Positions 29,869 through 47,935 of a stretch of 64,000 nucleotides of DNA are shown piece after piece. The notes under the pieces are model-generated. The model saw only the letters and a list, made by a program, of their open reading frames with translations, was not told where the DNA came from and did not search any database. The number at the start of each line of letters is the position of its first letter. Within the stretch, counting starts at the first letter, position 1. The translations under genes were made by a program, and so were the position numbers. The stretch is from Dehalococcoidia bacterium (GTDB taxonomy: Bacteria > Chloroflexota > Dehalococcoidia > UBA2979): contig JBAYVN010000002.1 in assembly GCA_041674525.1 (NCBI GenBank), positions 9,841-73,840 of the forward strand. Direction: 5' to 3'.

Positions 29869-30196
29869 CCCGGGGGCGGCGAACGCCCGCGGATCGCGGC
29901 GAGACGCCGGGCGCCCCGTGTCCGCCGCCAGCCGCCACGCGCAGAACTCATGTTCGACGGCCGCCGTTCGGCCCACCGGGAGGCGCATCCTTCGCCCACC
30001 CCGCCCTGCTCGGCGTCCACAAATGTCGAAGATTTTCCCCCCGGAACGTCAGAGGGCACGCAAGAGGTGTAAGAACCCGCCCCCTCCCGCCGTCATACCT
30101 ATCGAACGCGGTCCTCAACCGCGCAGCACCACAGATCGGGCCCCATGGCCCGCACCGGCGACGGCGGGAGCCGACCGACCGAAGAGGAGACATCAG

Positions 30197-30501: not shown

Positions 30502-30723
30502 ATGGCTCAGGTTGAACTTCCTGGAAGCGCACAGACCCCGTCGTCCACCTCGGCCGAACGAGGCGTCGACGGGCGGTGGCCGTCGGGCAGCCGTGAAGAC
30601 GGCCAGACGATGGCGGAGTACGGGCTGATCCTGGCGGGCGTGTTCGTGCTGGTCGCGGCAACCGTGCTCGCATTTGGCCCGGCACTGAGTGGCCTGTTCG
30701 AGCAGGTCATCGCGGAGTTCTAG
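30502..30723 (+). CDS. flp: Flp-family type IVb pilin, second copy with long leader
   Basis: 73 aa. Leader ..SREDG|QTMAEYGLILAGVFVLV, with the identical cleavage motif. Confidence 0.85.
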   Translation: MAQVELPGSAQTPSSTSAERGVDGRWPSGSREDGQTMAEYGLILAGVFVLVAATVLAFGPALSGLFEQVIAEF

Positions 30724-30760
30724 ATCCACCCAGCTGGCCTGAAGACGACGGGAGCGCGCT

Positions 30761-31180
30761 ATGCACCTTCCGAACGCCACCATCAAACCCGCCAACGAAC
30801 GGGGACAGGCCGTGCTGGAACTCGCTCTCATCATGCCCGTTCTCGTGATGCTCGTCTTTGGCGCGCTCGAGGTGGGGCGGCTGCTGAACGCATGGGTCGT
30901 GGTCACCGAAGCCTCGCGCGAGGGTGCCCGTGTCGCCGCAGCGAAGTGCACCTGGCAGGCCGGGTGCGGCACGCTCGTGCAGACGGGCGTCACCAACTCA
31001 CTGGCGGGGCTGGACGTCGCGCGATCGAGCTGGTCGATGACGACCGGTCCGTACGTCGCGGGCGACGCGGTCACGGTGAACGTCGATTACCGATCACAAC
31101 TGGTCGTTCCGCTGATCAGTTCGATCTTCGGCTCCGACGAGGTCACCGTGCACAGCCAGACGAGCATGAGGCTTGAATAA
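30761..31180 (+). CDS. tadE: TadE-like pseudopilin
   Basis: ERGQAVLELALIMPVLVMLVFGALEVGRLL N-terminal TadE/G signature (PF07811-like). Confidence 0.8.
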   Translation: MHLPNATIKPANERGQAVLELALIMPVLVMLVFGALEVGRLLNAWVVVTEASREGARVAAAKCTWQAGCGTLVQTGVTNSLAGLDVARSSWSMTTGPYVAGDAVTVNVDYRSQLVVPLISSIFGSDEVTVHSQTSMRLE

Positions 31181-32220
31181 TGCCTACCCTGCTCTTCCGC
31201 CACGTACTCTCCCTGTCGGCCTCGTGGCTCCGGCGCCTGCGCGTGGAGTCGGGAGCCGCCGCGGTCCTGTTTGCCGCGACGCTGCTCCCGATCGTCGGCA
31301 TCTCGTCGCTCAGCGTGGACGTGGCGAACGTCTTCCTCGACCGGCGCGAGCAGCAGAACGCGGTGGATGCCGCGTCGCTGGCCGCCGCCTCCTACCTGCC
31401 CACCACCAGCACCAGCGTCCTGAACAGCGCGACCAGCGCGGCGATCGAATTCGCCGCGGCGAACGGGGTCACGATCTCCGCCTCGGACGTCACGTACAGC
31501 ACGTCGAGCCAGCGATTCGACGTGGTCACCGTGCGTAGCGAGCGCACCGTTCCCTTCTTCTTCGCCGGAGCCATGGGCATCACCAGCGGCGCGGTGAGCA
31601 GCCGCGGCGCCTCGCAGCTCGGCTCCCTGGTGGGCATGACCGGCGTCATGCCGTGGGGGTTGCACCAGCAGACCTTCAACTTCTCAGCCCCGTACTGCCT
31701 GAAGATGGGCTCGAACGGCAACGGCGCGGACTGCAACCAGCAGAGCAGCGCCGGCGACTTCGGCCCGATCGACATCGACAACAACGGCAGCGCGTCCGGC
31801 AACCTGTACCAGGGCCTGATCATCACCGGCTCGCAGACCGAGGTGCTGGTCGGCCAGGTCAAGGGCACCGTCAGCGGCAACAAGCAGGGCCCCACGGAGT
31901 CCGCGCTTGGGTGCAGCAACAACAGCAACGGCCGCCTGACCGGCAACACGCAGACCTTCACGGACGTGCTGCGGGCCAACGCCGACGGCGTGACCTACAC
32001 CGTGCTGGACTGGAGCAGCCCGCGGCTGGTGATCATCCCGGTGATCCAGACGGTCGGAAACAACCTGATCCAGATCAAGGGACTCGTCGTCTTCTTCATC
32101 ACGGAATGCGGCCAGAACGGGTCGGTCATCGGCCAGTTCATCGACACCGTGGTGCCCGGCGGCAGGTGGGGCGTGTACCAGCCCGGGTTCGGTACGCGGG
32201 CGATCCGGATGATCGAGTGA
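31180..32220 (+). CDS. tadG: TadG-like pilus assembly protein (Tad N-domain protein)
   Basis: ESGAAAVLFAATLLPIVGISSLSVDVANVF N-terminus, then a Ser/Thr/Gly/Asn-rich beta region. Confidence 0.7.
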   Translation: MPTLLFRHVLSLSASWLRRLRVESGAAAVLFAATLLPIVGISSLSVDVANVFLDRREQQNAVDAASLAAASYLPTTSTSVLNSATSAAIEFAAANGVTISASDVTYSTSSQRFDVVTVRSERTVPFFFAGAMGITSGAVSSRGASQLGSLVGMTGVMPWGLHQQTFNFSAPYCLKMGSNGNGADCNQQSSAGDFGPIDIDNNGSASGNLYQGLIITGSQTEVLVGQVKGTVSGNKQGPTESALGCSNNSNGRLTGNTQTFTDVLRANADGVTYTVLDWSSPRLVIIPVIQTVGNNLIQIKGLVVFFITECGQNGSVIGQFIDTVVPGGRWGVYQPGFGTRAIRMIE

Positions 32221-32239
32221 TGCAGACGAGGGACGAGGC

Positions 32240-32953
32240 ATGAGAACACGATCACTGCTGCTATCGCTGATCTTCGCCGTGGTGGGCGGGGGGCTCACGC
32301 TCCTCGTCCTTCGCGGTCACACCGTGAGCCAGGCGCCACAGGCCGACGCGACCGAGCGCGTGGTAGTGCCCGTGCGCCCGATCGCCGTGGGCGACAAGCT
32401 CGGCGTCGCTGATGTGCGCACCGCAGTGCTCATGAAGGGAACGGCGCCCGAGGATTCTCTCCGGGATCCGGCCGAGGTGCAGGGGCAGTTCGCGCAGGTG
32501 CCGCTGGTCGTCGGGCAGCCGCTCCGCCGCGCGGACATGAGCAGCGCCGCGCCGGGCAGCCGCCTCGCCGCGATCATCCCGGACGGTCACATTGCGATCG
32601 CGGTCGGCGTGAGCGACGTGATCAGCACTGGAGGCTTCGTCGCCCCGGGTGACCACGTGGATGTCCTCGGCGTCGTGACGAAGGAGGCGCAGGACAGCGC
32701 GCAGGTGGTCCTGCAGGACGTCCTGGTGCTCGCGGTGTCCAACGCCCTGAACGGCACCGCCGACCCTGCCGCCTCCACCCGCAAGCCCGCGGCCGGCGGC
32801 GAGAACCCGAACGGCGTGCACTCCACGATCACCCTCGCCGTGACGACCCAGGAGGCGCAGCGCCTGGTGCAGGTTGACGAGCTGGGCAAGCTGCGATTCG
32901 CGCTCCGGCGTCGCATCGACGGTGGTACCGGTCCCGCAGCGGCGTCCAGGTAG
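32240..32953 (+). CDS. cpaB: Flp pilus assembly protein CpaB (RcpC) with SAF domain
   Basis: N-terminal TM, then a SAF-like segment (VVPVRPIAVGDKLGVADV) and an RcpC-like C-terminus. Confidence 0.75.
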   Translation: MRTRSLLLSLIFAVVGGGLTLLVLRGHTVSQAPQADATERVVVPVRPIAVGDKLGVADVRTAVLMKGTAPEDSLRDPAEVQGQFAQVPLVVGQPLRRADMSSAAPGSRLAAIIPDGHIAIAVGVSDVISTGGFVAPGDHVDVLGVVTKEAQDSAQVVLQDVLVLAVSNALNGTADPAASTRKPAAGGENPNGVHSTITLAVTTQEAQRLVQVDELGKLRFALRRRIDGGTGPAAASR

Positions 32954-32976
32954 CGAACGTAGCCAGGGGGGCATGC

Positions 32977-34194
32977 ATGGCACGAAACCCGTCACTCCTG
33001 CTCGTCGATGCGAACCCGGATCATCGCGCGCTGCTCCGGCAGCTCGTGTCCGGGCTGCCCTACGCCGTGGCCGCGGAGGCCAACTACGGCGTGGAGGCAG
33101 CGCGGCTCGCGGGCGAGCTCCAGCCCGAGATCGTCCTCGTGCACATCGAGGAGCCGCTCGCACTCGCGTTCCGCACTCTGGAAGTCGTGCAGCAGGCGGC
33201 CCCGCGTGCCGTGCCGGTGGTCATCTCGCGCCGCAATGACGGGGAGACCGCGCGCAAGGCGATGCTCTTCGGGGCGCGCGGCTTCGTCCTGAGCCCGCCC
33301 ACGGCCAACTCGATCGACGAGGTGCTCGCGCTGGCGAAGGCGCGGTACGACTCGACGATCCAGTCGGCGCTCGACGGGCTGCAGCTGGACGATGACGGCG
33401 CGATCCGCACCTCGGCGCTCGCCGGCGGCACGGTGATCACGGTCTTCGGGCCGAAGGGGGGCATCGGCAAGACGACGCTCGCCACCAACCTGGCGATCTC
33501 GATCCAGCGCCGGACCGAGGCGCGCGTCGCGATCGTGGATGTCGACGCGGACTTCGGCGACGTCGCCGTGATCATGGGCATCGAGCCGGAGCGCACCATG
33601 CGCGACCTGCTGGACGCGTACCGCGACGGCGAGCTGCCTCCGCTCCAGGACTTCATGGCGCTGCACAGCTCCGGCGTGCACGTCCTCGGCACCCGCCATG
33701 CGGAACGCATCGGGACGATGCCGGACCCGGATGCGATCGCCACGCTGATCCGCCAGTTGGTGCGCACGTATGACTTCGTGATCGTGGACACCCCCGGCGC
33801 GTTCGTGCCGCAGGTGGCCGCCGCCCTGGACGAGGCGACCACCGTGCTCCTCGTCACCAGCGCGGACCTCTCGAGCATCAAGGACGCACGCCTCGCGATC
33901 TCGATGCTGCGCGGGTCCGGATACCAGGGCGATCGCCTCAAGCTGGTCGTCAACCACGCCACCAACGCGAACTCCGTGTCCGATGCGGACGTGGCGCGCA
34001 CGGTGGGGTACGACGTCTTCTGGACGCTGCCGCACGACCGCGCGGTGCCGCAGTCCACGCAGCACGGCGAGCCCATCGTGATCTCGAACCCGCGCTCGCG
34101 CATGGCGCAGCGGGTCGACGCGCTGGCAACGTACCTGAGCGGCACCGGCGAGGTGCCCGAGCCCGAGCCGCGGAAGCGGCGCTTCTTCTGGTAG
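32977..34194 (+). CDS. cpaE: CpaE/TadZ: receiver-like N-domain + ParA/MinD-type ATPase
   Basis: Pseudo-receiver N-terminus and a deviant Walker A (GPKGGIGKTT). Confidence 0.85.
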   Translation: MARNPSLLLVDANPDHRALLRQLVSGLPYAVAAEANYGVEAARLAGELQPEIVLVHIEEPLALAFRTLEVVQQAAPRAVPVVISRRNDGETARKAMLFGARGFVLSPPTANSIDEVLALAKARYDSTIQSALDGLQLDDDGAIRTSALAGGTVITVFGPKGGIGKTTLATNLAISIQRRTEARVAIVDVDADFGDVAVIMGIEPERTMRDLLDAYRDGELPPLQDFMALHSSGVHVLGTRHAERIGTMPDPDAIATLIRQLVRTYDFVIVDTPGAFVPQVAAALDEATTVLLVTSADLSSIKDARLAISMLRGSGYQGDRLKLVVNHATNANSVSDADVARTVGYDVFWTLPHDRAVPQSTQHGEPIVISNPRSRMAQRVDALATYLSGTGEVPEPEPRKRRFFW

Positions 34195-34208
34195 GACTGG
34201 AGGCATCA

Positions 34209-35672
34209 GTGGCCACGGAAATGCTGCGTCACCGCTTCCGATCGCCCGGGAGCGAGCCGCCCGCCCCGGCGCCGGGCACCCAGGGCACCCCGGGCACCCC
34301 GGGCACGTCCGCGCTGGAAGCGGCGGTCAACCTCGCCGCGGCCGGGGACATCTCGCCGATCGGCGAGGGGCCGCTGATGCGCTGGGCGGCCGAGCCGCCG
34401 CCCCTGCCGCCCTCGCTCGTGCGGCTGAAGGAGACCGTGCACGAGCAGCTGATCGAGGAGGTCGACCCCGGGTCGCTGGACCCGGAGGGCGCTCGCCGGC
34501 TGGTGCGCGAGGTGGCCACGGAGCTCCTCGGCCAGCAGGACGTGCGCGGCGTCGCCGAGTACCGCGATCGCCTGGTCAACGAGATCGCGGATGAGGTGCT
34601 GGGGCTCGGCATCCTGGAGCCGCTGCTCCGCGACGACTCCGTCACCGAGATCATGGTGAACGCCCCCGACGGCATCTTCGTCGAGGTGGGCGGCCGGCTG
34701 TTCCGGAGCACGTACGCATTCCGCGATGAGGCTCACCTGATGCGCATCATCGAGCGCATCGTGGCGCCGATCGGCCGGCACGTGGACGAGAGCTCGCCCA
34801 TGGCGGATGCGCGCCTCCCCGACGGATCGCGCGTCAACATCGTCGTCCCGCCGGCCTCGCCGCACGGCGCGAAGCTGACGCTCCGCAAGTTCGCGCGGCA
34901 CCGCATGCGGGCCGAGGACCTGGTCCGGCTGAGGGCGCTCTCCAGCGACGCCACGCTGTTCCTGCAGGGCGCCGTCCGAGCGCGACTCAACATCCTCGTC
35001 TCCGGAGGCACCGGCAGCGGCAAGACCACGCTGCTGAACGTGCTGTCCTCGTTCATCAGCGATGGAGAGCGCATCGTCACGATCGAGGATCCCCTGGAGC
35101 TCCAGCTGCAGCAGATCCACGTCGTCGCGCTCGAGGCGAAACCGCCGGGGATCGAGGGATCGCGGCAGATCACGCAGCGCGACCTGGTGCGAAACGCGCT
35201 GCGCATGCGCCCCGACCGGATCATCATCGGCGAGGTCCGCGGTGCCGAGGCGTTCGACATGCTGCAGGCGATGAACACCGGCCACGAGGGATCGATCAGC
35301 ACGGTGCACGCCAACACCCCCCGCGATGCCCTGAGCCGCGTGGAGAACATGGTGATGATGGCGGGCTTCGACCTCCCGGATCGCGCGATTCGGGAGCAGG
35401 TCGCCTCGGCGATCCACCTGCTGGTGCAGGTCGCAAGGATGTCCGATGGCAGCCGCAAGGTGACGCACATCACCGAGGTCGCGGGGATGGAGGGACAGGC
35501 GATCACGATGCAGGACCTGTTCCTGTTCCAGACGACAGGCCGGGACGACCACGGCCGGGTGCAGGGAGAGCTCCAGGCCACCGGGCTGCAGCCGCACTTC
35601 CTGGGCCGGTTCGCGGAGCGCGGCATCCACCTCCCGCAGGACATCTTCCACAGCACGAGGTGGTCGGAATGA
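34209..35672 (+). CDS. cpaF: CpaF/TadA secretion ATPase (type II/IV secretion NTPase)
   Basis: Walker A (GGTGSGKTT), Asp/His boxes (TIEDPLEL ... TGHEGS). Confidence 0.9.
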   Translation: MATEMLRHRFRSPGSEPPAPAPGTQGTPGTPGTSALEAAVNLAAAGDISPIGEGPLMRWAAEPPPLPPSLVRLKETVHEQLIEEVDPGSLDPEGARRLVREVATELLGQQDVRGVAEYRDRLVNEIADEVLGLGILEPLLRDDSVTEIMVNAPDGIFVEVGGRLFRSTYAFRDEAHLMRIIERIVAPIGRHVDESSPMADARLPDGSRVNIVVPPASPHGAKLTLRKFARHRMRAEDLVRLRALSSDATLFLQGAVRARLNILVSGGTGSGKTTLLNVLSSFISDGERIVTIEDPLELQLQQIHVVALEAKPPGIEGSRQITQRDLVRNALRMRPDRIIIGEVRGAEAFDMLQAMNTGHEGSISTVHANTPRDALSRVENMVMMAGFDLPDRAIREQVASAIHLLVQVARMSDGSRKVTHITEVAGMEGQAITMQDLFLFQTTGRDDHGRVQGELQATGLQPHFLGRFAERGIHLPQDIFHSTRWSE

Positions 35673-36619
35673 TGCTGGCGGTGATCGCCGCTCTGACCGT
35701 GGGCGCCGCCGGGTTCTTCGGCGCGCTCAGCATCCTCGCGCCCGCGGAGCGCAGGCGAACGACCGCCGCCGCGCGCCTCACATCGATCGCCGATCACGAG
35801 AGCGTCTTCGAGCCCGGCTTCGAGGCCCTCGGACGGCGGCTCGGGCCGAGCAACCTGGACCGCCAGCTCGTGCGCTTCCCGCTGGGATCGATGATCAAGC
35901 GGGATCTCCAGCGCTCAGGGCTTGCCTGGCAGGTCCGCGACTACATCGGCGTGATGCTGGTGCTGGCAGTGGTCGGCGGTTCCGTGGCCTTCCTGTTCTC
36001 GGCGACCGCGTTCCCGCTCGGCGGGCTCGCGGGCGCACTGGTGCCGGTGCTCATCGTCAAGCGCATCGCCTCCAAGCGGGCGTCACGCCTGAACGGCCAG
36101 GTCGTGGACCTCGTGGAGCTGCTCGCCTCGTCGCTCCGATCGGGCTTCAGCTTCGTACAGAGCCTGGAGCTGGCGCTGCGCGAGCAGCCCGAACCCATGG
36201 CCGGCGAGCTCCGGCAGGTGATGCGCGAGACCAGCCTCGGCATGAGCACCGACGAGGCCCTCCAGCGCCTCGCGGACCGCACCGGGGACGAGGATCTCGG
36301 GCTCGTGCTGACGGCTGTGCTCATCCAGCGCCGCGTCGGCGGGAACCTCGCGGAAGTGCTCGGCGGGATCGTGGAGATGATCCGCGACCGTGCGCGGGTC
36401 CGCGGCGAGATCCACACCCTGACCGCGCAGGCCCGCATGTCCTCGTGGATCGTGGGATCGCTGCCCGTGGTGCTCGCCATCGTGATGTCGATGATGCAGA
36501 AGGGCTACATGGCGGCGCTGTACACCGAGCCGGTGGGCCGGCTCATGCTGATCGCGGCCGTCGTCCTCGAGGTGATCGGACTGTACCTCGTGCGGCGGAT
36601 CGCGTTCGTCGACTACTAG
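35669..36619 (+). CDS. tadB: TadB (T2SS-F family inner membrane platform protein)
   Basis: T2SSF domain pattern. ATGA overlap with cpaF. Confidence 0.85.
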   Translation: MMLAVIAALTVGAAGFFGALSILAPAERRRTTAAARLTSIADHESVFEPGFEALGRRLGPSNLDRQLVRFPLGSMIKRDLQRSGLAWQVRDYIGVMLVLAVVGGSVAFLFSATAFPLGGLAGALVPVLIVKRIASKRASRLNGQVVDLVELLASSLRSGFSFVQSLELALREQPEPMAGELRQVMRETSLGMSTDEALQRLADRTGDEDLGLVLTAVLIQRRVGGNLAEVLGGIVEMIRDRARVRGEIHTLTAQARMSSWIVGSLPVVLAIVMSMMQKGYMAALYTEPVGRLMLIAAVVLEVIGLYLVRRIAFVDY

Positions 36620-36659
36620 CCGAGAACGGACAGAGCGGACAGAGCGGACGGAGCCAGCG

Positions 36660-37568
36660 GTGTTGCTCACAGTATTCGCAGCGCTTTCGGTAGCGGCGGC
36701 GGCCTTCTTCGGCGGCCGGGCCGTGCTCGTGCACGAGTCCGGTCGAAGCGCCGCGCGCCTGCAGGAGATCGCGAGCTCCGGCGAGCCGTTCGACCCGGAT
36801 GCCGACCAGGGCACGGTCTGGGATCGCCTCGTCAGGCCATTACTGCGCGGCGCCGCGGAGCGGTTCAGCGCCCTGCTCCCGACGCGCCTGGCGCAGTACT
36901 TCGAGGGACAGCTGATCGTGGCCGGCGATCCGGTCACCCCGCATGCCTACGCGCTCTTCGTGCTCCTGCTGCCGGCTGCGCTGGCGCTCGGGCCGCTGGT
37001 CGTCGTGTTGCGCACTCACAACCTGTCGCTGGCGACGTTCGGAGTGCTCGCCGCGTGCCTGACGCTGGGCGTCGCCGCACCGCCGATCTGGCTGAAGGGG
37101 CGGATCGCCCGGCGGCAGATGGCGCTGGTGCGCAGCCTCCCGGACGCGGTCGACCTCGTCGTCGTGTCGGTGGAGGCCGGTCTCAGCCTGGAGGGCGCGC
37201 TCGGGCGCGTGGCGGAAGGGCAGGACGGCCCGCTGGTGCAAGAGCTCCGGCGTGCATTGACCGAGATGAGCCTCGGCATGGGCCGGCGGCGGGCGCTCCA
37301 GGGCCTCGTCGATCGCACGCAGCTCCCGTCGCTCCGCTCGCTGGTGAGTGCGATCGTGCAGGCGGAGATGACGGGCATGGGCATTGCCCAGGTCCTGCGC
37401 GCGCAGTCGCTGCACCTGCGGACGCAGCGCCGCCAGCGCGCCGAGGAGCAAGCGATGAAGGCGCCGCTCAAGATGCTCTTCCCGCTCGTCTTCTTCATCT
37501 TCCCCTCGCTCTTCGTGGTGGTGCTGGGCCCCGCGGTGTTCTCCCTGCTCCGGGCGCTGGGCCAGTAG
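36660..37568 (+). CDS. tadC: TadC (T2SS-F family inner membrane platform protein)
   Basis: T2SSF domain pattern. GTG start. Confidence 0.85.
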   Translation: MLLTVFAALSVAAAAFFGGRAVLVHESGRSAARLQEIASSGEPFDPDADQGTVWDRLVRPLLRGAAERFSALLPTRLAQYFEGQLIVAGDPVTPHAYALFVLLLPAALALGPLVVVLRTHNLSLATFGVLAACLTLGVAAPPIWLKGRIARRQMALVRSLPDAVDLVVVSVEAGLSLEGALGRVAEGQDGPLVQELRRALTEMSLGMGRRRALQGLVDRTQLPSLRSLVSAIVQAEMTGMGIAQVLRAQSLHLRTQRRQRAEEQAMKAPLKMLFPLVFFIFPSLFVVVLGPAVFSLLRALGQ

Positions 37569-37577
37569 GAGCGTGAC

Positions 37578-37994
37578 ATGACGAGCGAGCAGCCCCGTCC
37601 GCTGGCGGCAGGCGAACCTCGACGCGACACGCGCGCCGTGCTGCGATGCTCGCGCACGGACGTGCTGGTGGTGACGCGGCTCCGCGTCGCGGGCAACATG
37701 CTGTCGCGCCTGAAGGGCCTCCTGGGCAGCGCAGAGCCCGCGCCGGGTGACGGCCTGTGGATCGTGCCGTGCTCCGGCGTGCACACGGTGGGGATGCGCT
37801 ATCCGATCGACGTCGTGTTCCTCGATCGAGCGGGCCGCATCGTCGCCACGCGTCCGGAGCTCCGGCCGCTGCGCGCCGTGCCCTGGGTGCGACATGCGCA
37901 CAGCGCTCTGGAGCTGCGGCAGGGAGCGATCGCCCGCTGCGATCTGCGAACCGGCGACGTGCTCGTCGTCGACCCCGGCGGGACCGCGGGGTGA
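37578..37994 (+). CDS. DUF192 (COG1430) domain protein embedded in the Tad operon
   Basis: ..WIVPCSGVHTVGMRYPIDVVFLD.. matches the DUF192 core. 9 nt after tadC. Confidence 0.7.
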   Translation: MTSEQPRPLAAGEPRRDTRAVLRCSRTDVLVVTRLRVAGNMLSRLKGLLGSAEPAPGDGLWIVPCSGVHTVGMRYPIDVVFLDRAGRIVATRPELRPLRAVPWVRHAHSALELRQGAIARCDLRTGDVLVVDPGGTAG

Positions 37995-38052
37995 TCGAGG
38001 TAATCGGGATCGAGGTGGTTGTGATCGAGGTGGTTGTGATCGAGGCGATCGG
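37993..38052. repeat. Four tandem copies of a 15-bp unit (GATCGAGGTGGTTGT)
   Basis: gatcgaggtaatcgg, gatcgaggtggttgt, gatcgaggtggttgt, gatcgaggcgatcgg. Fills the gap between the DUF192 stop and the cpaA start. Confidence 0.85.
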
Positions 38053-38055
38053 GTG

Positions 38056-38598
38056 ATCCGCGTCATCGAGCCGCGCACGGCGATCGCCGAGACCAGCGCG
38101 CATACGCCCGCGTGGCGCAGCAATGTGTCGCTGGGCGTGCTCGCCGGGGTCACCGCCGGCGCTGCCGTCGCGTTCATGCTCCCCGCGGCGCGATGGCTGC
38201 CCCTGCTCGTGATCTTCGCCCTCGCCGCGGGGATCGACTGGCGGACGCGGCGCATCCCCAACTGGCTGACGGCGGGCGGCGGGGCGTTCGCCCTGCTCAC
38301 GGCCGGCGGCGCGCTCGGCGCATCGCTCCTCGGCGCCGCGGTGGCGCTCGGGGCGGGGGTGGTCTTCGTCGTGCTGGCCCGCGGCGCGTTCGGAATGGGC
38401 GACGTGAAGCTCCTGGCGGTGGCGGGGGCGGCGACGGGCGCGGCAGCGTTGCCCGGCGTGCTCCTGGTGATGTCTATCGCCGGCGGTGTCCTGGCGTTGT
38501 GGGCCATGGCGACCGGTCGAGGTCCGGGCCCGCGCACCATCGCTTACGGTCCGGCGATCGCCGTGGGCGCGGCCGCCGCGATCTGGCTCGAACGCTAG
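38056..38598 (+). CDS. cpaA: Prepilin peptidase (A24 family; CpaA/TadV)
   Basis: Multi-TM with catalytic Asp motifs (..GMGDVKLLAVAG..). GTG start. Confidence 0.8.
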   Translation: MRVIEPRTAIAETSAHTPAWRSNVSLGVLAGVTAGAAVAFMLPAARWLPLLVIFALAAGIDWRTRRIPNWLTAGGGAFALLTAGGALGASLLGAAVALGAGVVFVVLARGAFGMGDVKLLAVAGAATGAAALPGVLLVMSIAGGVLALWAMATGRGPGPRTIAYGPAIAVGAAAAIWLER

Positions 38599-38631
38599 GC
38601 AAGCAGTCGACGGAGGCCGGCCACGGGCAAC

Positions 38632-38961
38632 GTGATCGCGGTCATGAGCGGCGACTGGGTGGTCGCCGAGATCTCCGGGACACGGCAGTTCCGGCGCATG
38701 CTCCGCGCCGCGATGCGGCCGGAGGACCTCATCTTCGACGCGGACGACGGGCTGTGGAGGATCCGCGGCACCGCATGGGGCGCCGCCTGCGCGGTGTTCT
38801 GGAGCTTCCAGATGTCGGTCGAGATGTTCCAGGCGCCCGATCACGGGGGCGATGGCCATGCGACCGCCGCGCGCACGCTCCCCGATGACGCGATCCGGCG
38901 TGCGCGGCGCCTGTCCGCCGCGATCGCGCGGGATCGCCTGGATTTCCCGATCGAGCGCTGA
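38632..38961 (+). CDS. Hypothetical small protein at the 3' end of the Tad operon
   Basis: 109-aa ORF with no recognisable motif. Start is uncertain (GTG 38632 or ATG 38644). Confidence 0.35.
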   Translation: MIAVMSGDWVVAEISGTRQFRRMLRAAMRPEDLIFDADDGLWRIRGTAWGAACAVFWSFQMSVEMFQAPDHGGDGHATAARTLPDDAIRRARRLSAAIARDRLDFPIER

Positions 38962-38999
38962 ACACGCTCGCCAGTCTGCAAGCGCGGAGCGTGTCCGGG

Positions 39000-40925
39000 C
39001 TACGCCTCGCCAGGCGCCGCTGCGACTTCACTCGCGCCGAACCGCAGCGTGTGCGCCCCGATGCGCATGGCCTCGCCCGGGGCGAGGATCGTCCACTCGG
39101 CGGTGCCGTCCGAGCGCGACGCCGGATCGCTCGTGAGACGCTGCACCCGCAGGTTGCCGTCCGGCGCGATCGTGACGCGGGCATGACGTGGCGCGATCTG
39201 CGGCCCGGTGACGACGATGTCACACGACGGCTCGCTCCCCAGCACCAGCCCCTCACCCACCGGGTGGCTCTCCGGGTCGCCCTGTGGCCCCTCCACGGTG
39301 ATCGCGAGTGCGCTGCCGGGCGTCCAGAGATTCACGCGATCGCCGATCATCCGGACGCCGCGCGGCTGCAGCTCCCCGACCCCGGGCGTTGCGACTCGAG
39401 GCGGCCGCCGCCTCAGCGTCTGCCACCCGACCGTGGCGATCGCGGCGGCCACCAGCGCCGCAACGAGCGCGATGATCGCGAGCGGGTTCACCCCCGCCGA
39501 CACGCCGGCGCTCTCCGTGCGGATCACCGCGCCGCTCGCATCGAGCAGCGCCAGCGTCAGGCCGCCGGACGGGGGATCCTGCATGCGGAGCTCCGGCGCG
39601 CTTCCCCGCGCGAGCTCGCGCCCGTCGCCGGTCACCACGATCGTCGCGGCGCGGCCCTGTACACGGCCGCTCACCACGAGGGTCCTCGGCGGGCCGTTCT
39701 CAACGCGGGACGACAGCGTGGAATCGAGCTGCGGAACGTCGATCGACAGCGTCTCGGTCGCGGCGGTCCGGCCGTCGACCATCGCGGTGACGGTCACCAC
39801 GGTCACGCCCGGCGGGAACGCCCACGGGTCGATGCTGATGCTGCGATCACGCCCCCACGGCACGCTGGTGCCGCTCAGCGATGCGGTCAGCTGCAGCGTG
39901 TCCGGGCGCGCCGGGCCATCGAGCGTGATCACGATCGGACCATCAGGCCGGGCCGACGGGATCGCGCGCGGCTTCAGCAGGCCGTCGTTCGTGACATCGA
40001 ACGACAGCCCGGCAGTCTCGACGCCACCGGCGACGGAGACGCGCACGGAGACCTCGTGCGATCCGTTCGCGAGCACGGGGATCGAGGCGTCCACCAGGAA
40101 CAGCGTGTGCAGGCGATCACCGAGCGCCGTGAGCACGCCGCCCAGTGCCTGGACGTTCGCCACCGCCTGGTAGGTGCCGCCGGTCGCCATCGCCAGCTCG
40201 GAGAGATAGGCGGCGTCCGGATCGGCGCCCAGCCCGAACGCGAAGATCCGCGCGCCTGCCCTGCGCGCGGCATCGAGGCTTTGCGAGCGCGTGACCTTCG
40301 AGACCCCGCCCACCTCCTCGCCCTTGCGCAGCGGCGCATTCGAGAGCACCACCAGCACGTGCCGTCCCGGCGATGCCGGTCCGAGGGCGTTCGCACCGAG
40401 CGCCACGGCGTCGTAGAGTCCGGCATTGCCACCGGCCGCGATGTTCGTGATCCCCGTGCGGAGGCGCGTGCGATCGGTGGAGAGCGGCACGACGACCTTC
40501 GTGCTGTCCGCGAAGGTGATCAGCCCGACCTGGTCCGCGGGACCCAGGCGGTCGACCAGCGCGCGCGCGGCGTCCTTCGCCGCGATGAGTGGCGCGCCCC
40601 GCATGCTGTCGCTGGCGTCGACGGCGATCAGCACCGAGGCGGCGGGGGGCACCTGCCGGGAGACCGCGGGCGCCGGGACCTCACGACCGTCGATGGATAC
40701 CGCGAGCTGGGTGGCATCGATGGCGCTCCCCAGCGGACCGAAGAGCGAGATCAGCAGGTGGCCATCCACGCGGTAGGAGACCTCCGAGATCCCCAGCGCC
40801 CCGGGCGGGCGCTGCGCTCGTCCGGACTGCGGGACGAGCGCCCACGACACGGCGATGCTGACGAGTAGCGCGAAGAGCAACGACCGTCGCCCGCGAGGCA
40901 GGCTGATACGCCAGTGGAGCCACAT
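39000..40925 (-). CDS. Signal peptide - vWA domain - beta-rich extracellular region - TM - C-terminal FHA domain protein
   Basis: 641 aa. N-terminal signal (LLFALLVSIAVSWA). vWA MIDAS-like pattern (VLIAVDASDSM ... ITFADS ... VVLSNAP). TM near residue 470 (LAIIALVAALVAAAIATV). C-terminal FHA-like motifs (..GSEPSCDIVV..APRHARV..LTSD..GT..LAPGEAMRIGAHTLRFG). Confidence 0.7.
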   Translation of the reverse strand: MWLHWRISLPRGRRSLLFALLVSIAVSWALVPQSGRAQRPPGALGISEVSYRVDGHLLISLFGPLGSAIDATQLAVSIDGREVPAPAVSRQVPPAASVLIAVDASDSMRGAPLIAAKDAARALVDRLGPADQVGLITFADSTKVVVPLSTDRTRLRTGITNIAAGGNAGLYDAVALGANALGPASPGRHVLVVLSNAPLRKGEEVGGVSKVTRSQSLDAARRAGARIFAFGLGADPDAAYLSELAMATGGTYQAVANVQALGGVLTALGDRLHTLFLVDASIPVLANGSHEVSVRVSVAGGVETAGLSFDVTNDGLLKPRAIPSARPDGPIVITLDGPARPDTLQLTASLSGTSVPWGRDRSISIDPWAFPPGVTVVTVTAMVDGRTAATETLSIDVPQLDSTLSSRVENGPPRTLVVSGRVQGRAATIVVTGDGRELARGSAPELRMQDPPSGGLTLALLDASGAVIRTESAGVSAGVNPLAIIALVAALVAAAIATVGWQTLRRRPPRVATPGVGELQPRGVRMIGDRVNLWTPGSALAITVEGPQGDPESHPVGEGLVLGSEPSCDIVVTGPQIAPRHARVTIAPDGNLRVQRLTSDPASRSDGTAEWTILAPGEAMRIGAHTLRFGASEVAAAPGEA

Positions 40926-41072
40926 GTGCGGAGGTTACGCTGCCGGTCCGCGCGCTGTCACGCTAGCGCACGCACAGCGCGACGGGACAGGCGAGGTGGA
41001 CGTGAGATTTGGCGACACCGGGCCTTCCGTACTATCTGGTGCTGTCCACGAACGTTCTCGGAGGGGAGAGAC

Positions 41073-41555
41073 ATGACACTGGTTCGTTCGGGGCGCGGGT
41101 TGCGCTCCCTGATCCTCGGGCTGACGGCGATGGCGGCGACGGTTGCAGTCGCCTGCGGCGGAGATTCGACCACGAAGGCCGACATCCCGCCCGCACCGAC
41201 GGCGACCGTGGAGACCGCGCCGACGGGACCGAACGTGAGCGTGGCGAAGGTCGCCTCGATCGGTGACGTGCTCGTGGATCCGAAGGGGATGACGCTCTAT
41301 ATCTCGAGCGAGGACACCTCTGGCAAGAGCAACTGCACGGGCAACTGCGCGGCCAACTGGCTGCCGCTCAAGGCGTTCAACGGCGTCGCGGCCAAGGCGG
41401 ACGGCGTGCCCGGCGAGCTCGGTGTGATCACACGCGCCGATGGGGTGCAGCAGATCTCCTACAAGGGGATGCCGCTGTACCGGTACGCCGGTGACTCCGC
41501 CGCAGGCGAGGCGAAGGGCATCACTGTGATGAACTGGGCGGTGGCCGCTCCCTGA
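41073..41555 (+). CDS. Secreted lipoprotein with two copies of the 'secreted repeat of unknown function' (COG4315 / Lipoprotein_15-like)
   Basis: Lipobox (AVAC). Repeats ..VLVDPKGMTLYIS.. and ..GMPLYRYAGD.. with CxGxCAxxW. GGAGGGGAG RBS. Confidence 0.7.
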   Translation: MTLVRSGRGLRSLILGLTAMAATVAVACGGDSTTKADIPPAPTATVETAPTGPNVSVAKVASIGDVLVDPKGMTLYISSEDTSGKSNCTGNCAANWLPLKAFNGVAAKADGVPGELGVITRADGVQQISYKGMPLYRYAGDSAAGEAKGITVMNWAVAAP

Positions 41556-41648
41556 TCGAGGCCGTCCCGCTGGCACGATGCTGACCGGCGCGCCGGACGC
41601 AGCATCGGCGGCCGCGCGGGTGATCGTGATCACAGGGGTCGAAGAGAG

Positions 41649-41674
41649 GAAGGTCCGCCCCGGGGCGGACCTTC
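41649..41674. terminator. Palindromic hairpin gaaggtccgcccc/ggggcggaccttc
   Basis: Between the convergent lipoprotein (+) and AAA+ (-) genes. Confidence 0.6.
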
Positions 41675-41785
41675 CCGCTCCCCGCCCCCCAACTCCGCGC
41701 ACACCCCGCCCGACCTCGCCGCAGTCGCGTGGCGACGCGGGCGGTCCCGCACGCCCGATGGCCATCGATCCCGCGGCCGTCGTGC

Positions 41786-43192
41786 TCAGCTCATCGCCTC
41801 CCGCCAGGGCAGCACGTGATCCGGACGGGACGTCCGCGCGACGAAGTAGATGCTGGCGGCCTCGGCTAGGGCCTCCACGCTCAGGCGAGCCCGCTCGCCG
41901 CGGTAGGCCGCGCAGTCCAGCAGGATGCGGATGATGTCCGTGGGGTGGCACCCGCGGTATTCGCGCTCCGCCTCCTCGTACTCCCTGCGCATGAACGCCA
42001 CGGTCACGTCCGGGTCGTCGACAAGCCCCACCGCAGCCGAGGCGCGATGCATCAACTCAACGAACTCCTCGCGCGTGGGATCCGGGACGTGGATCTTGTA
42101 GCGGATCCGCCTCAGGAATGCCTCGTCTCCCAGCTCGGCGGGAGCGCGATTGGATGAGAAGACCACGAGCACGTCGAAGGGGACGCGGATGGTGCCTTCG
42201 GTCCGCATGCGGAGCTGATCCCACCCCGCCTCCAGCGGTGTGATCCAGCGGTTGAGCAGCTCGCTGGGTCGCACGCGCTGCCGTCCGAAGTCATCGACGA
42301 CGAGGATGCCTCCGTTGGCCTTCAGCGGAGGCGGCGCGTTGTAGCAGCGGTTCGCCTCATCCCACTGCAGCTCCAGGTCCTCCAGGACCAGCTCGCCCCC
42401 GAGCGTGACGATGGGCCGGCGGCACGCCACGTATCGACGATCGTAGGCGGGCAGATCCTCGGTGAGCGGCTCGTGCACGCGCGGATCGAAGATCGTGATC
42501 GTCTGGTGCCCCACCTCGACGGCGTACGGCACGAGCACGCGGCCCTCGAGCATGTCGCGCATGGCGCGGGTGATGCTGGTCTTGCCGTTCCCGGGCGCGC
42601 CCGAGAACAGGATCGAGTGGCTCGAGTTCACAGCGACGCCAATCGTGTCGATCAGCGGGCTGGACAGCACGAGTCCGGAGAGCGCCCGCGCCACTGCCGG
42701 GCGCGGCACGCGCATGGCGTGCACCGACTGCCGCTCCAGCAGCGCCGCGTACTGCGCCCACGATACGGGTGCCGGCCCCACGTAGCCGTTGCGCTCCGCA
42801 GCGGTGACCGCCTGGTCGCGCCCACTGGCGGTGAGCAGGTAGTTGAACCACTGCTCACCCTGCGACGCGCTGCCGGAGATCTGCACCAGCCGCTCATGCT
42901 TCAGCGGGGCCATCACCTCGTCGATCACGCGGGGGGACAGGCACAGCACGTCCGCGATCTCGCGCGGTGTCGCGCTCCCGCTTGCGAGGATGTACTTGAG
43001 CACGAGTCCGCGCAGGGTGTCCTCGGCGAGGCCGGTCTCGTCCACGGTGCGTGGCTCGGTGGGCAGCGAGTCCGGCCACCCGCCAGCGTCGAGGCGCCCA
43101 CCGGCGTTGAGGTGCCCACCGGCTTCGATGTGATCGCCGCCCGGGAACAGGCGGTCCGCGGCCGGCTCGGCGAGACGCGTGCGTTGAAGCAT
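41786..43192 (-). CDS. Winged-HTH (MarR-like) N-domain + AAA+ ATPase; uncharacterised family
   Basis: About 468 aa from MLQRTRL with an AGGAAG RBS. wHTH pattern (LRGLVLKYILASGSATPREIADVLCLSPRVIDEVMAPLKHERLV..YLLTASGRD). Walker A (GAPGNGKTS), Walker B (ILVVDDFG), sensor-1 (VVFSSN), Arg (FLRRIRY). Confidence 0.65.
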   Translation of the reverse strand: MLQRTRLAEPAADRLFPGGDHIEAGGHLNAGGRLDAGGWPDSLPTEPRTVDETGLAEDTLRGLVLKYILASGSATPREIADVLCLSPRVIDEVMAPLKHERLVQISGSASQGEQWFNYLLTASGRDQAVTAAERNGYVGPAPVSWAQYAALLERQSVHAMRVPRPAVARALSGLVLSSPLIDTIGVAVNSSHSILFSGAPGNGKTSITRAMRDMLEGRVLVPYAVEVGHQTITIFDPRVHEPLTEDLPAYDRRYVACRRPIVTLGGELVLEDLELQWDEANRCYNAPPPLKANGGILVVDDFGRQRVRPSELLNRWITPLEAGWDQLRMRTEGTIRVPFDVLVVFSSNRAPAELGDEAFLRRIRYKIHVPDPTREEFVELMHRASAAVGLVDDPDVTVAFMRREYEEAEREYRGCHPTDIIRILLDCAAYRGERARLSVEALAEAASIYFVARTSRPDHVLPWREAMS

Positions 43193-43324
43193 CGGTACTT
43201 CCTGATTCTCCTCAGCGCGTCCGCGCACCACGAGCGCGACGCGCATCACGCGCATCCGCGCGCCGCTCAAGCCGGCGAGGCGACGGCATGGGGTTCACTC
43301 GGCTCCCGCATCGTGCGGCGTGCA

Positions 43325-46185: not shown

Positions 46186-47463
46186 TCAGGCGGCGCCCCC
46201 CGCGCGGGCGCGGGCGAGCAGCACCTCACGCTCGCGCGCGTTGCCGGTCATGGATGCGGCCCGTTCGAACTCGGCACGCGCGTCCTCGAAGCGGCCGAGC
46301 TTCGCCAGCAGGTCCCCGCGGACGCCCGGCAGCAGGTGGTACGACCGCAGCGACCGCTCCCCCGCGAGGGCATCCACGGCCTCGAGGCCGGCGGCCGGCC
46401 CGAACGCCATCCCCACGGCGACGGCGCGGTTGAGCGCCACCACCGGCGAGGGCGCCACCGCCGCCAGCGCGTCATACAGCGCGACGATGCGCTCCCAGTC
46501 GGTGTCCTCCGGGGTGCGCGCCCGGGCGTGGCAGGCCGCGAGCGCCGCCTGCAGCGCGTACGGCCCGTGCGCCCCGCCCAGCGCCTCGGCGCGGGCGAGC
46601 GCGGCCAGCCCGCGGCCGATGAGCAGGTGATCCCAGCGCGCCCGGTTTTGGTCGAGCAGCAGGATCGGCTCCCCGGACGGCCCCGTGCGTGCGCGGATGC
46701 GCGACGCCTGGATCTCCATCAGCGCCACGAGGCCGTGGACCTCGGGCTCGCCCGGCATCAGCTCCGCGAGGATGCGGCCCAGGCGCAGCGCGTCCTCGCA
46801 CAGCGCGGGACGCATCCAGTCGTCTCCCGACGTGGCGGCGTACCCCTCGTTGAAGACGAGGTAGATCACCTCCAGCACCGAGGCCAGGCGCGCCCCCAGC
46901 TCGCCGCGATCCGGCACCTCGTACGGCACGCCCGCCTCCGCCAGCGTCCGCTTCGCGCGCACCATGCGCTGGGCGACGGTGGGCTCCGGCACGAGGAACG
47001 CGCGGGCGATCTCCGCCGTCGTCAGCCCGCCCAGCAGGCGCAGCGTGAGCGCGACCCTCGCCTCGGGGCGCAGCACGGGGTGGCAGGCGGTGAAGATCAG
47101 CCGCAGCAGGTCGTCGCCCACGTCGTGCTCGCCCACGTGGTTCTCGATCGCCTCGATGTCCGCGGCCGTGAGGTCCTGGCGCTCGGCGAACGCCCGCCCC
47201 AGCGCATCGCGGCGCTGCTCCAGGCGCACGTTCCGGCGGACGAGGTCGATCGCGCGGTGCTTCGCCGTGGCCATGAGCCAGGCCCCCGGGTTGCGCGGGA
47301 TGCCCGACCCCGGCCACTGCTCCAGCGCGGCGACCAGCGCGTCCTGCGCCAGGTCCTCGGCGAGCCCGACGTCGCGGACGATGCGCGCGATCCCCGCGAT
47401 CAGGCGCGCGGACTCCATGCGCCAGACCGCGTCGATCGCGCGGTGCGTATCCTCGGCCGTCAT
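46186..47463 (-). CDS. ECF-type RNA polymerase sigma factor with C-terminal TPR-like extension (COG4941 type)
   Basis: Sigma70 region 2 (..DLAQDALVAALEQW..) and region 4 (LTTAEIARAFLVPEPTVAQRMVRAKRTL), then a long helical C-terminal domain. Confidence 0.75.
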   Translation of the reverse strand: MTAEDTHRAIDAVWRMESARLIAGIARIVRDVGLAEDLAQDALVAALEQWPGSGIPRNPGAWLMATAKHRAIDLVRRNVRLEQRRDALGRAFAERQDLTAADIEAIENHVGEHDVGDDLLRLIFTACHPVLRPEARVALTLRLLGGLTTAEIARAFLVPEPTVAQRMVRAKRTLAEAGVPYEVPDRGELGARLASVLEVIYLVFNEGYAATSGDDWMRPALCEDALRLGRILAELMPGEPEVHGLVALMEIQASRIRARTGPSGEPILLLDQNRARWDHLLIGRGLAALARAEALGGAHGPYALQAALAACHARARTPEDTDWERIVALYDALAAVAPSPVVALNRAVAVGMAFGPAAGLEAVDALAGERSLRSYHLLPGVRGDLLAKLGRFEDARAEFERAASMTGNAREREVLLARARAGGAA

Positions 47464-47503
47464 CCGCCTCGGTCCACCCCTGCCCGCGCCGCGGGCCCGC
47501 GCA

Positions 47504-47935
47504 CTACTGGCCCTGCCGCTGCTGCGCCTCCACCTGGGCGCGCAGGCGCGTCTCGCTCTCCCGCACCTCGGGAGAGAGCGCATCGCCGAAGTCCTCGGTC
47601 TCGAAGACCTGGCGTATCTCCAGTTCCACGCCGCCACCGAACGGCGCGCGCTTGACCCACTCGATCGCCTCTTCGCGCGACTTGACCTGGATCAGCCAGA
47701 AGCCGGCGATAAGCTCCTTGGTTTCCGCGAACGGACCGTCGATGACGGTGCGGGTGTCGCCATCGAAGCGGATGCGCGCGCCCTTCGAGCTCGGGTGCAG
47801 GCCCTCCCCGGCAAGCATCACCCCCGCCTTCACCATCTCCTCGTTGAACCGGTTCATCTCCTCGAAGATCTGCGCGTCCGGGAGCACGCCGGCCTCAGAC
47901 TCGTCGTTCTCCTTGACCATGACCATGAATCGCAT
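47504..47935 (-). CDS. YciI-like (DGPF domain) protein
   Basis: MRFMVMVKE..., about 143 aa, with a YCII-related pattern. Sits immediately upstream of the COG4941 sigma factor, a commonly seen pairing. Confidence 0.65.
   Translation of the reverse strand: MRFMVMVKENDESEAGVLPDAQIFEEMNRFNEEMVKAGVMLAGEGLHPSSKGARIRFDGDTRTVIDGPFAETKELIAGFWLIQVKSREEAIEWVKRAPFGGGVELEIRQVFETEDFGDALSPEVRESETRLRAQVEAQQRQGQ

Follow-up and report, generated by a model that had tools for sequence, protein, structure and literature searches.

What might a protein with a domain of the von Willebrand factor A (vWA) type outside the cell and a forkhead-associated (FHA) domain inside it be doing beside a tight adherence (Tad) pilus operon? 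The question is raised by a 64,000-nucleotide stretch of a Dehalococcoidia bacterium (assembly GCA_041674525.1, contig JBAYVN010000002.1, positions 9,841 to 73,840 of the forward strand; hereafter the window), in which a 641-codon gene at 39000..40925 on the minus strand lies next to a secretin-less Tad operon. Tad pili are widespread organelles of adhesion, colonisation and contact killing; mechanistic knowledge of them comes almost entirely from diderm Proteobacteria with secretins, and the extracellular organisation and the regulation of the secretin-less machines of Chloroflexota and Actinomycetota are little understood. A sequence-only reading of the locus had suggested that the protein couples pilus or surface contact to Ser/Thr-kinase signalling. 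Here we find both its architecture and its Tad linkage in a wider protein family, and we lean, with modest confidence, towards an accessory transmembrane (TM) adaptor of the secretin-less Tad machine, not a phosphothreonine (pThr) receptor, whose FHA domain would dock cytoplasmic partners without phosphorylation.

Architecture of the vWA-TM-FHA protein and its family

Because the window is about 70% GC, long spurious open reading frames (ORFs) are frequent in it; real genes were separated from mirror frames by GC content at the third codon position (GC3). With GC contents of 0.73, 0.56 and 0.89 at its three codon positions, the ATG-started ORF at 39000..40925 matches the other window genes, and from the ORF list, its translation and its GC3 we judge it to be a real gene; a 626-aa protein on a JGI metagenome contig (P0001) is identical to its product.

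The architecture of signal peptide, vWA domain, TM helix and FHA domain read from the sequence alone holds up in profile searches, hydropathy and structural models. The Pfam VWA model (PF00092) matches residues 98-261 (E 4.8e-14, 53.4 bits vs a cut-off of 23.8) and the FHA model (PF00498) matches at 23.4 bits vs a cut-off of 20.7, in agreement with an AlphaFold2 (AF2) model. Yop-YscD_cpl (PF16697), the cytoplasmic domain of the type III secretion system (T3SS) inner-membrane ring, outscores the FHA model at 26.8 bits and falls under its own cut-off of 33.2. A weak BiPBP_C match covers residues 386-468, Big_7 is seen in relatives such as P0004, and the Pfam scan found no TadE/G-like pilin segment (PF13400/PF07811) in the protein; no NCBIfam model reaches its cut-off for this protein, nor for the AAA ATPase and the J-like/TM/FHA partner described below.

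Hydropathy gives exactly two hydrophobic segments. The first (residues 15-33) follows a basic N-terminus (RGRR), precedes GRA/Q and resembles a Sec signal peptide; the second (residues 481-502, hydropathy maximum 2.67) is followed by RRRPPR. Applied to these two segments, the positive-inside rule puts the vWA side outside and the FHA domain inside, a predicted type I (N-out, C-in) single-pass topology; the model likewise has one signal helix and one TM helix. The AF2 model, built on a 36-sequence family alignment, has a mean predicted local distance difference test score (pLDDT) of 84.4, and a separate model of the C-terminal 105 residues one of 83.9. The vWA region (residues 97-273) is modelled as a Rossmann-like alpha/beta fold with pLDDT >90, for which Foldseek returned the vWA structures 4fx5, ITIH1 and ArnB (E 1e-9 to 4e-13); together with the adjoining beta-sandwich it resembles the ArnB structures 8s05 (E 2e-12) and 5a8j. 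The long beta-rich extracellular region of the sequence-only reading resolves in the model into a beta-sandwich (275-311) followed by a pair of Ig-like domains (318-397, 403-475). For the C-terminal model the top 50 PDB matches in Foldseek are all FHA domains (TM-score 0.61-0.69), and the family profile matches the PDB FHA domains of GarA, OdhI and EmbR with E down to 5e-11. The features of the gene are as follows.

39000..40925, minus strand: whole coding sequence of the vWA-TM-FHA protein, 641 aa (ORF, GC3 0.89, P0001)
40815..40925, minus strand: predicted signal peptide, residues 1-37 (basic n-region, GRA/Q; hydropathy, family AxAQ consensus in the same place, AF2 helix 14-30)
40659..40793, minus strand: N-terminal beta-strands, residues 45-89 (AF2; conserved in the family and in vWA-TadB fusions)
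40107..40637, minus strand: vWA domain, residues 97-273 (Pfam, ligand-site column counts, Foldseek to vWA structures)
39501..40103, minus strand: stalk outside the membrane, rich in beta-strands, residues 275-475 with the beta-sandwich and both Ig-like domains just named (AF2, pLDDT >90)
39411..39485, minus strand: TM helix, residues 481-505 (hydropathy, AF2)
39315..39410, minus strand: disordered basic and Pro-rich cytoplasmic linker, residues 506-537 (pLDDT <50, poor conservation in the family alignment)
39033..39308, minus strand: FHA-fold domain, residues 540-631, modelled as a beta-sandwich (AF2, PF00498, family profile, Foldseek, residue counts)

A word-indexed search matched the full length of the protein only to P0001 and gave the false impression of a singleton, which an exhaustive HMMER search overturned: it returned 10,039 matches at E<=1e-3 (mostly to the vWA domain alone) and 57 representatives at E<=1e-30. 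Dozens of proteins of 620-680 aa align with the target end to end at 25-47% identity; among the top 149 representatives, 102 carry the family FHA domain behind a TM segment and 0 a TadB domain, and a subfamily of about 500 aa has one beta module instead of three on an otherwise identical plan. Every source name that identifies an organism reads VWA domain-containing protein of a Dehalococcoidia bacterium, and the named members all come from uncultured metagenome-assembled genomes (MAGs) of Dehalococcoidia only. In the closest homologue, P0032 (L084 10001-11926, 47% identity), the similarity does not extend past residue ~566 and the protein breaks off early within the FHA region; because its contig has a coverage of 1.7x, a frameshift or an error of assembly is the likely cause.

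Linkage to Tad loci

The window's Tad operon runs from 30502 to 38598 on the plus strand, as recognised from Pfam, NCBIfam and the Flp motif, and no secretin was found among the scanned window genes.

30502-30723, plus strand: Flp prepilin (G/QTMAEY motif, start codon)
30761-31180, plus strand: TadE (Pfam)
31180-32220, plus strand: TadG-like protein without vWA domain (Pfam)
32240-32953, plus strand: CpaB/RcpC (Pfam)
32977-34194, plus strand: REC-TadZ/CpaE (Pfam)
34209-35672, plus strand: CpaF/TadA (Pfam)
35660-36619, plus strand: TadB (Pfam)
36660-37568, plus strand: TadC (Pfam)
37578-37994, plus strand: DUF192 protein (Pfam)
38068-38598, plus strand: prepilin peptidase A24 (Pfam)

Contigs carrying family members were fetched and scanned with these Tad proteins, and precomputed Pfam tables were also used. 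The family is linked to Tad genes in 13 of the 15 informative loci, in three arrangements and at 25-47% protein identity; low identity together with three gene orders points to selection on the linkage, not to one inherited arrangement. In every Tad-linked locus the vWA-TM-FHA protein is the sole vWA ORF, and the TadG-like proteins have no vWA domain. The Tad linkage of the family is strongly supported, and the check proposed in the sequence-only reading, a neighbourhood with Tad genes that is conserved in related genomes, gave a clearly positive answer.

Co-directional, directly after the prepilin peptidase: L085 (P0035), L087 (P0044), L092 (P0219, of the ~500-aa type)
Directly upstream of Flp-TadE-...-TadV: L003 (a GTDB Dehalococcoidia MAG), L086 (P0045), L088 (P0050), L089 (P0056), L090 (P0054)
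Convergent on the operon end: the window, L005 (another Dehalococcoidia MAG)
Adjacent to the Tad operon: L004 (Anaerolineaceae), metagenome loci L120 and L122
Contig too short to judge: L001, L007, L083, L107; L108 is probably linked

The target had been described as convergent with the last Tad gene. Convergence stands, but the gene that it faces across a 38-bp gap is a 109-codon ORF (38632-38961, plus strand, GC3 0.91) that follows the prepilin peptidase, the last recognisable Tad gene; this ORF has no Pfam or NCBIfam match and no homologue in any fetched locus. On the other side, the target is monocistronic because its true upstream neighbour is a divergent lipoprotein gene.

41070..41555, plus strand: lipoprotein gene with Lipoprotein_15 repeats (Pfam PF03640, E 1.2e-24)

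A scan with the query set saw no homologue of this lipoprotein in the related loci and, standing between the target and the AAA gene described below, it is probably not part of the system.

Fusions of a related ectodomain to TadB

Where the ectodomain might work is suggested by the nearest vWA domains outside the family, which in the word-indexed search and a GTDB scan belong to proteins of 620-720 aa that combine a signal peptide and vWA domain with one TM segment and a T2SSF (TadB) platform domain. The N-terminal ectodomain of one of them, P0002, is 36% identical to target residues 76-302 (E 5e-23), and P0002 occupies the TadB position in an operon with the same gene order as that of the window. 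Such fusions were found in 21 of 80 GTDB loci, all inside Tad operons, in Acidimicrobiia, other Actinomycetota and some Chloroflexota (L002 10001-11923; L008, L009, L011-L019, L021, L023, L025, L027, L028, L038, L046, L062), and no description of them was found in the literature searched, whose coverage is short of all journals. Few of these 80 loci hold true family members, because the pattern from a 13-sequence alignment was the generic MIDAS motif; the 36-member alignment had no conserved stretch usable as a pattern. Because a related ectodomain is covalently fused to TadB, that of the target most likely acts at the outer face of the membrane, by the pilus platform, and this covalent tether is the best available clue to its working site.

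The vWA and FHA ligand sites

The two ligand sites of the protein bear directly on whether it signals. Residue column counts were taken over 36 family sequences. In the MIDAS (metal-ion-dependent adhesion site) of the target the DxSxS motif is intact (D103, S105, S107), and the Thr and Asp ligands, each kept in 31 of 36 members, are replaced by Ala168 and Asn196. The vWA domain had been called MIDAS-type; the description is right for DxSxS and fails for the other two ligands. The target also has an 8-residue insertion in its vWA domain, found otherwise only in P0032, which shares the Asp-to-Asn replacement and has Ser at the position of the MIDAS Thr. Because its MIDAS is incomplete, metal-dependent ligand binding may be weakened in the target copy.

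The FHA pocket was judged by aligning the target to CT664 and MDC1, and the family profile to GarA, OdhI and EmbR. The signature Gly and His are kept (G563 in 36/36, H581 in 31/36). At the Arg of the GR motif the target has Ser (G563-S564), as do 23 of 36 members, with Ser or Ala in 27 and Arg in six; at the Ser of SxxH it has Ala578 (A578-P-R-H581), and this position is Ser in none of the 36, Arg in 22 and Ala in nine. Neither the target nor the family alignment has an S-x-N-G-T loop or NG motif. The FHA fold is genuine, but judged by these residues the canonical pThr-binding site is absent from the target and from most family members.

This result weakens the proposal of outside-in Ser/Thr signalling, in which the vWA domain would sense pilus tension, a surface or a ligand while the FHA domain binds pThr on a kinase or its substrate and feeds a network of Ser/Thr protein kinases (STPK) and PP2C phosphatases. 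The idea does have precedents: PpkA, with an extracytoplasmic vWA domain, activates a type VI secretion system (T6SS) via Fha1 (PMC3224232), the Tad-like kil clusters of Myxococcus encode many FHA proteins for which a signalling role has been proposed (PMC8460266), and ArnA (FHA) and ArnB (vWA) regulate the archaellum through kinases (PMC4858521). The FHA fold is moreover homologous to the pThr-binding domains of GarA, OdhI and EmbR, and the linker of the target contains TP motifs. Against this, all three phosphate-contacting positions are unconserved (in the target S564, A578 and no NG), and the search for a kinase or phosphatase came back empty: no Pkinase or PP2C domain was found in 50 scanned ORFs of the window, which leave a few short inter-gene stretches unscanned, nor do the Pfam gene tables that exist for eleven related loci list one. 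We therefore consider coupling to Ser/Thr-kinase signalling unlikely, although surface-contact sensing by the protein is possible, and an FHA annotation should not automatically be equated with kinase signalling.

Recurrent neighbours of the vWA-TM-FHA gene

If the FHA domain docks partners, candidates for them are encoded next door. The first is an ATPase of the window with a winged helix-turn-helix (wHTH)-like N-terminus.

41786..43270, minus strand: wHTH and classic-clade AAA ATPase, likely start ATG 43192 (homologues by vWA-TM-FHA genes; weak Pfam P-loop matches)

Its winged-helix-like N-terminus gives weak SufR and AlkZ-like wHTH matches below cut-offs, and in a PDB profile search its nearest solved relatives, distant only, are the classic-clade Vps4, EccA1 and p97. 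L092 encodes a 448-aa AAA protein with 46% identity to it, in a gene that overlaps the vWA-TM-FHA gene at the latter's 3' end; the neighbour of P0004 in L001, of 454 aa, shares 42% identity with it. A metagenome scan with these three AAA sequences gave 80 loci at 36-48% identity, many on contigs of only 1.4-5 kb; Tad genes are present in 24 of the 80, the AAA gene is divergent from a complete vWA-TM-FHA gene in L107, L108, L120 and L122, and partial vWA ORFs lie at the contig edges of L097 and L116. In all, an AAA homologue adjoins a vWA-TM-FHA gene in seven loci (the window, L001, L092, L107, L108, L120 and L122), and at least 14 Tad operons have an AAA gene as their final co-directional member (TadZ-CpaF-TadB-TadC-DUF192-AAA).

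AAA-terminal Tad loci: L100, L119, L128, L129, L135, L139, L141, L145, L146, L148, L151, L153, L164, L172

This ATPase family, for which there is no Pfam or NCBIfam model, looks like a Tad-associated family of its own that has so far gone undescribed; no description of an AAA partner of Tad was found in the literature searched. A MoxR-vWA pair was considered and rejected: the AAA protein reaches only 17 bits with the bpMoxR model (cut-off 27) and 19.3 with AAA_5 (cut-off 22), its motifs resemble those of the classic clade, and the vWA domain is extracytoplasmic while the AAA protein has no signal peptide or TM segment.

The wHTH-like region raises another possibility, that the protein is a membrane-tethered regulator of Tad expression whose FHA domain sequesters the wHTH-AAA protein and releases it according to the state outside, by an anti-sigma-like logic or as in ArnA/ArnB repression of the archaellum. 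Besides the weak SufR and AlkZ-like matches, adjacency of the AAA gene to vWA-TM-FHA genes in seven loci, often divergent as regulators frequently are, would fit this, as would the Foldseek resemblance of the vWA domain and beta-sandwich to ArnB (8s05). The wHTH assignment is weak, however; classic-clade AAA motifs are typical of protein remodelling, not transcription; the gene's place as the last inside at least 14 Tad operons is that of a structural or assembly factor; and ArnA and ArnB are both cytoplasmic and never in type IV pilus (T4P) loci (PMC4858521). Transcriptional control by this route seems improbable to us.

The second recurrent neighbour, directly after the vWA-TM-FHA gene in seven loci (L003, L083, L085, L087-L090), encodes a protein of 400-475 aa with a J-domain-like N-terminus (a faint Pfam DnaJ match), hydrophobic segments and a C-terminal non-canonical FHA-like domain homologous to that of the target.

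J-like/TM/FHA genes: L085 11909-13210; L087 11913-13208; L088 11905-13293; L089 11920-13209; L090 5088-6287; L003 11716-13143

Proposed role

FHA domains of the T3SS proteins YscD/PrgH and of the type VII secretion system (T7SS) protein EssC work independently of phosphorylation. Docking by the FHA domain of the target is probably phosphorylation-independent as well, because its pocket lacks the pThr-binding Arg, Ser and Asn. In the adaptor model a Sec signal peptide would export the ectodomain, in which the vWA domain is set in a small beta-sandwich and carried on two Ig-like domains; one helix would span the membrane, and a flexible linker of ~30 residues would hold the FHA fold in the cytoplasm. 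The ectodomain would most likely sit on the membrane's outer face, beside the pilus platform, and the FHA domain would take the place of the covalent TadB tether by docking partners encoded by neighbouring genes, namely the wHTH-AAA ATPase (41786-43270 in the window) and, in other loci, the J-like/TM/FHA protein. The physiological output may, speculatively, be control of the assembly, positioning or activity of the pilus machine, or a checkpoint on the state of the pilus.

A bolder extension is that the vWA-TM-FHA, wHTH-AAA and J-like/TM/FHA proteins together form one so far unrecognised module that spans the membrane and controls or assembles secretin-less (monoderm-type) Tad pili, an idea that we hold tentatively and think rather doubtful as a whole. 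An extracellular vWA "hand" at the pilus base would then be coupled, mechanically or allosterically and by way of an FHA domain that needs no phosphorylation, to a cytoplasmic engine for remodelling or chaperoning that is driven by ATP; if true, this would be a new way to couple extracellular events to a type IV filament motor.

Several observations weigh against the adaptor role. An incomplete MIDAS is odd for a ligand-binding adaptor. The window gene, convergent and monocistronic, is not co-transcribed with the Tad operon, and in two family loci, L084 with the closest homologue P0032 and L091 with the distant P0139, no Tad gene lies within 10 kb. Seven AAA loci with full 10-kb flanks also show no Tad genes, so the AAA-Tad link is frequent and not obligate, and no J-like/TM/FHA partner was found in the 64-kb window, where the sole match is the target's own FHA domain. 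A variant FHA pocket could still bind phosphate, because the GR Arg is kept in 6/36 members and Arg stands at the Ser position in 22/36. Everything said of the protein beyond its fold and synteny is, finally, inferred. Some of these observations would also suit a generic surface adhesin or a BatA-like vWA membrane protein, Tad-adjacent by coincidence or hitch-hiking, but although the window gene is convergent and monocistronic, P0032 is without a Tad link and weak NCBIfam similarities to BatA and acidobacterial VWFA families exist (all far below cut-offs), we regard this as very improbable given that 13 of the 15 informative loci show the linkage, across three gene orders and with protein identities of 25-47%, that a related ectodomain is fused to TadB, and that by a rough estimate for a genome a few Mb in size chance would place such a gene within 10 kb of a ~8-kb locus in <1% of cases.

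On the adaptor reading, the vWA-TM-FHA family, the vWA-TadB fusions and the AAA and J-like/FHA neighbours are candidate accessory parts of secretin-less Tad machines, and FHA docking without phosphorylation is a testable hypothesis that arises from the family.

Other features of the window

The leader of the Flp prepilin is unusually long, with ~36 residues before G/QTMAEY; the mechanical ORF list starts this gene at 30145. TadZ/CpaE (32977-34194, plus strand) carries an N-terminal receiver (REC) domain, as in all related Dehalococcoidia loci, and this domain is a possible cytoplasmic docking or regulatory site. No description of DUF192 in pili was found in the literature. An ECF-type sigma factor with DUF6596 and a TPR C-terminal extension is encoded at 46186-47637 on the minus strand; ECF sigma genes also adjoin vWA-TM-FHA genes in L001, L089 and L090, an adjacency that could be a regulatory link. 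Scans for promoter and terminator consensus sequences around the target found nothing, as is expected for a 70% GC non-model organism.

Four long mirror or antisense ORFs of 338-625 aa, typical of 70% GC DNA, could be mis-called as genes; GC3 and Pfam place the coding on the opposite strand.

38991-40868, plus strand: overlaps the target; its translation is Arg-rich nonsense and it was rejected as antisense junk
40935-41951, minus strand: rejected as an upstream operon partner, being non-coding (GC3 0.63, no Pfam match; the coding frame there is the plus-strand lipoprotein gene)
37495-38859, minus strand: mirror ORF
36840-38540, minus strand: mirror ORF

Comparison with known systems

The sequence-only reading had held that the protein is not a described Tad component, and this agrees with what we found: neither a paper on a vWA-TM-FHA component of Tad nor a description of Tad in Chloroflexi or Dehalococcoidia with an FHA domain turned up in the literature searched. 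The domains and the themes are known, but their conserved bitopic arrangement is undescribed, as are the partners.

Among Tad proteins, TadG/CpaL, the vWA-containing minor pilin or anchor of Tad pili, likewise ties a vWA domain to the Tad locus. Unlike TadG/CpaL, the target lacks a pilin N-terminus (PF13400); it begins with a signal peptide of the Sec type, and its C-terminal part consists of a TM helix and an FHA domain in the cytoplasm; the window moreover has a separate, vWA-less TadG-like gene at 31180-32220. Closer in plan are the uncharacterised vWA-TadB fusions, annotated as "tight adherence protein B", which share with the target the signal peptide, the vWA ectodomain, the single TM segment and the Tad gene order, but have a cytoplasmic T2SSF platform domain in place of FHA and lack the two Ig-like stalk domains.

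Two systems bring vWA and FHA modules together elsewhere. ArnA and ArnB of Sulfolobus act jointly on a type IV filament system, the archaellum, with an FHA and a vWA module as in the target, but they are separate soluble proteins of the cytoplasm (ZnF-FHA and vWA) which bind one another, are phosphorylated and under kinase control, and have their genes outside T4P loci (PMC4858521), whereas the target is one chain with its domains predicted on opposite faces of the membrane and an FHA domain without the pThr residues; the likeness to ArnB is one of fold only. The closest signalling analogue is PpkA-Fha1 of the Pseudomonas H1-T6SS, where a vWA domain outside the cytoplasm is linked through the membrane to an FHA-dependent step that controls the machine (PMC3224232). 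PpkA has a kinase domain, however, and Fha1 is a separate pThr binder; the target lacks a kinase domain, and its FHA pocket is non-canonical.

The remaining parallels are with FHA domains as working parts of machines. In class III FHA-CpaF and in KilF the domain recurs in Tad systems as a built-in machine module, and in YscD/PrgH and EssC the FHA fold is a built-in module of a trans-envelope machine. YscD has the order FHA-TM-periplasmic domain, which the target reverses to ectodomain-TM-FHA, and by sequence the target is no member of these families, scoring below the Yop-YscD_cpl cut-off; a built-in module of a trans-envelope machine is nevertheless the part that we propose for its own FHA domain.

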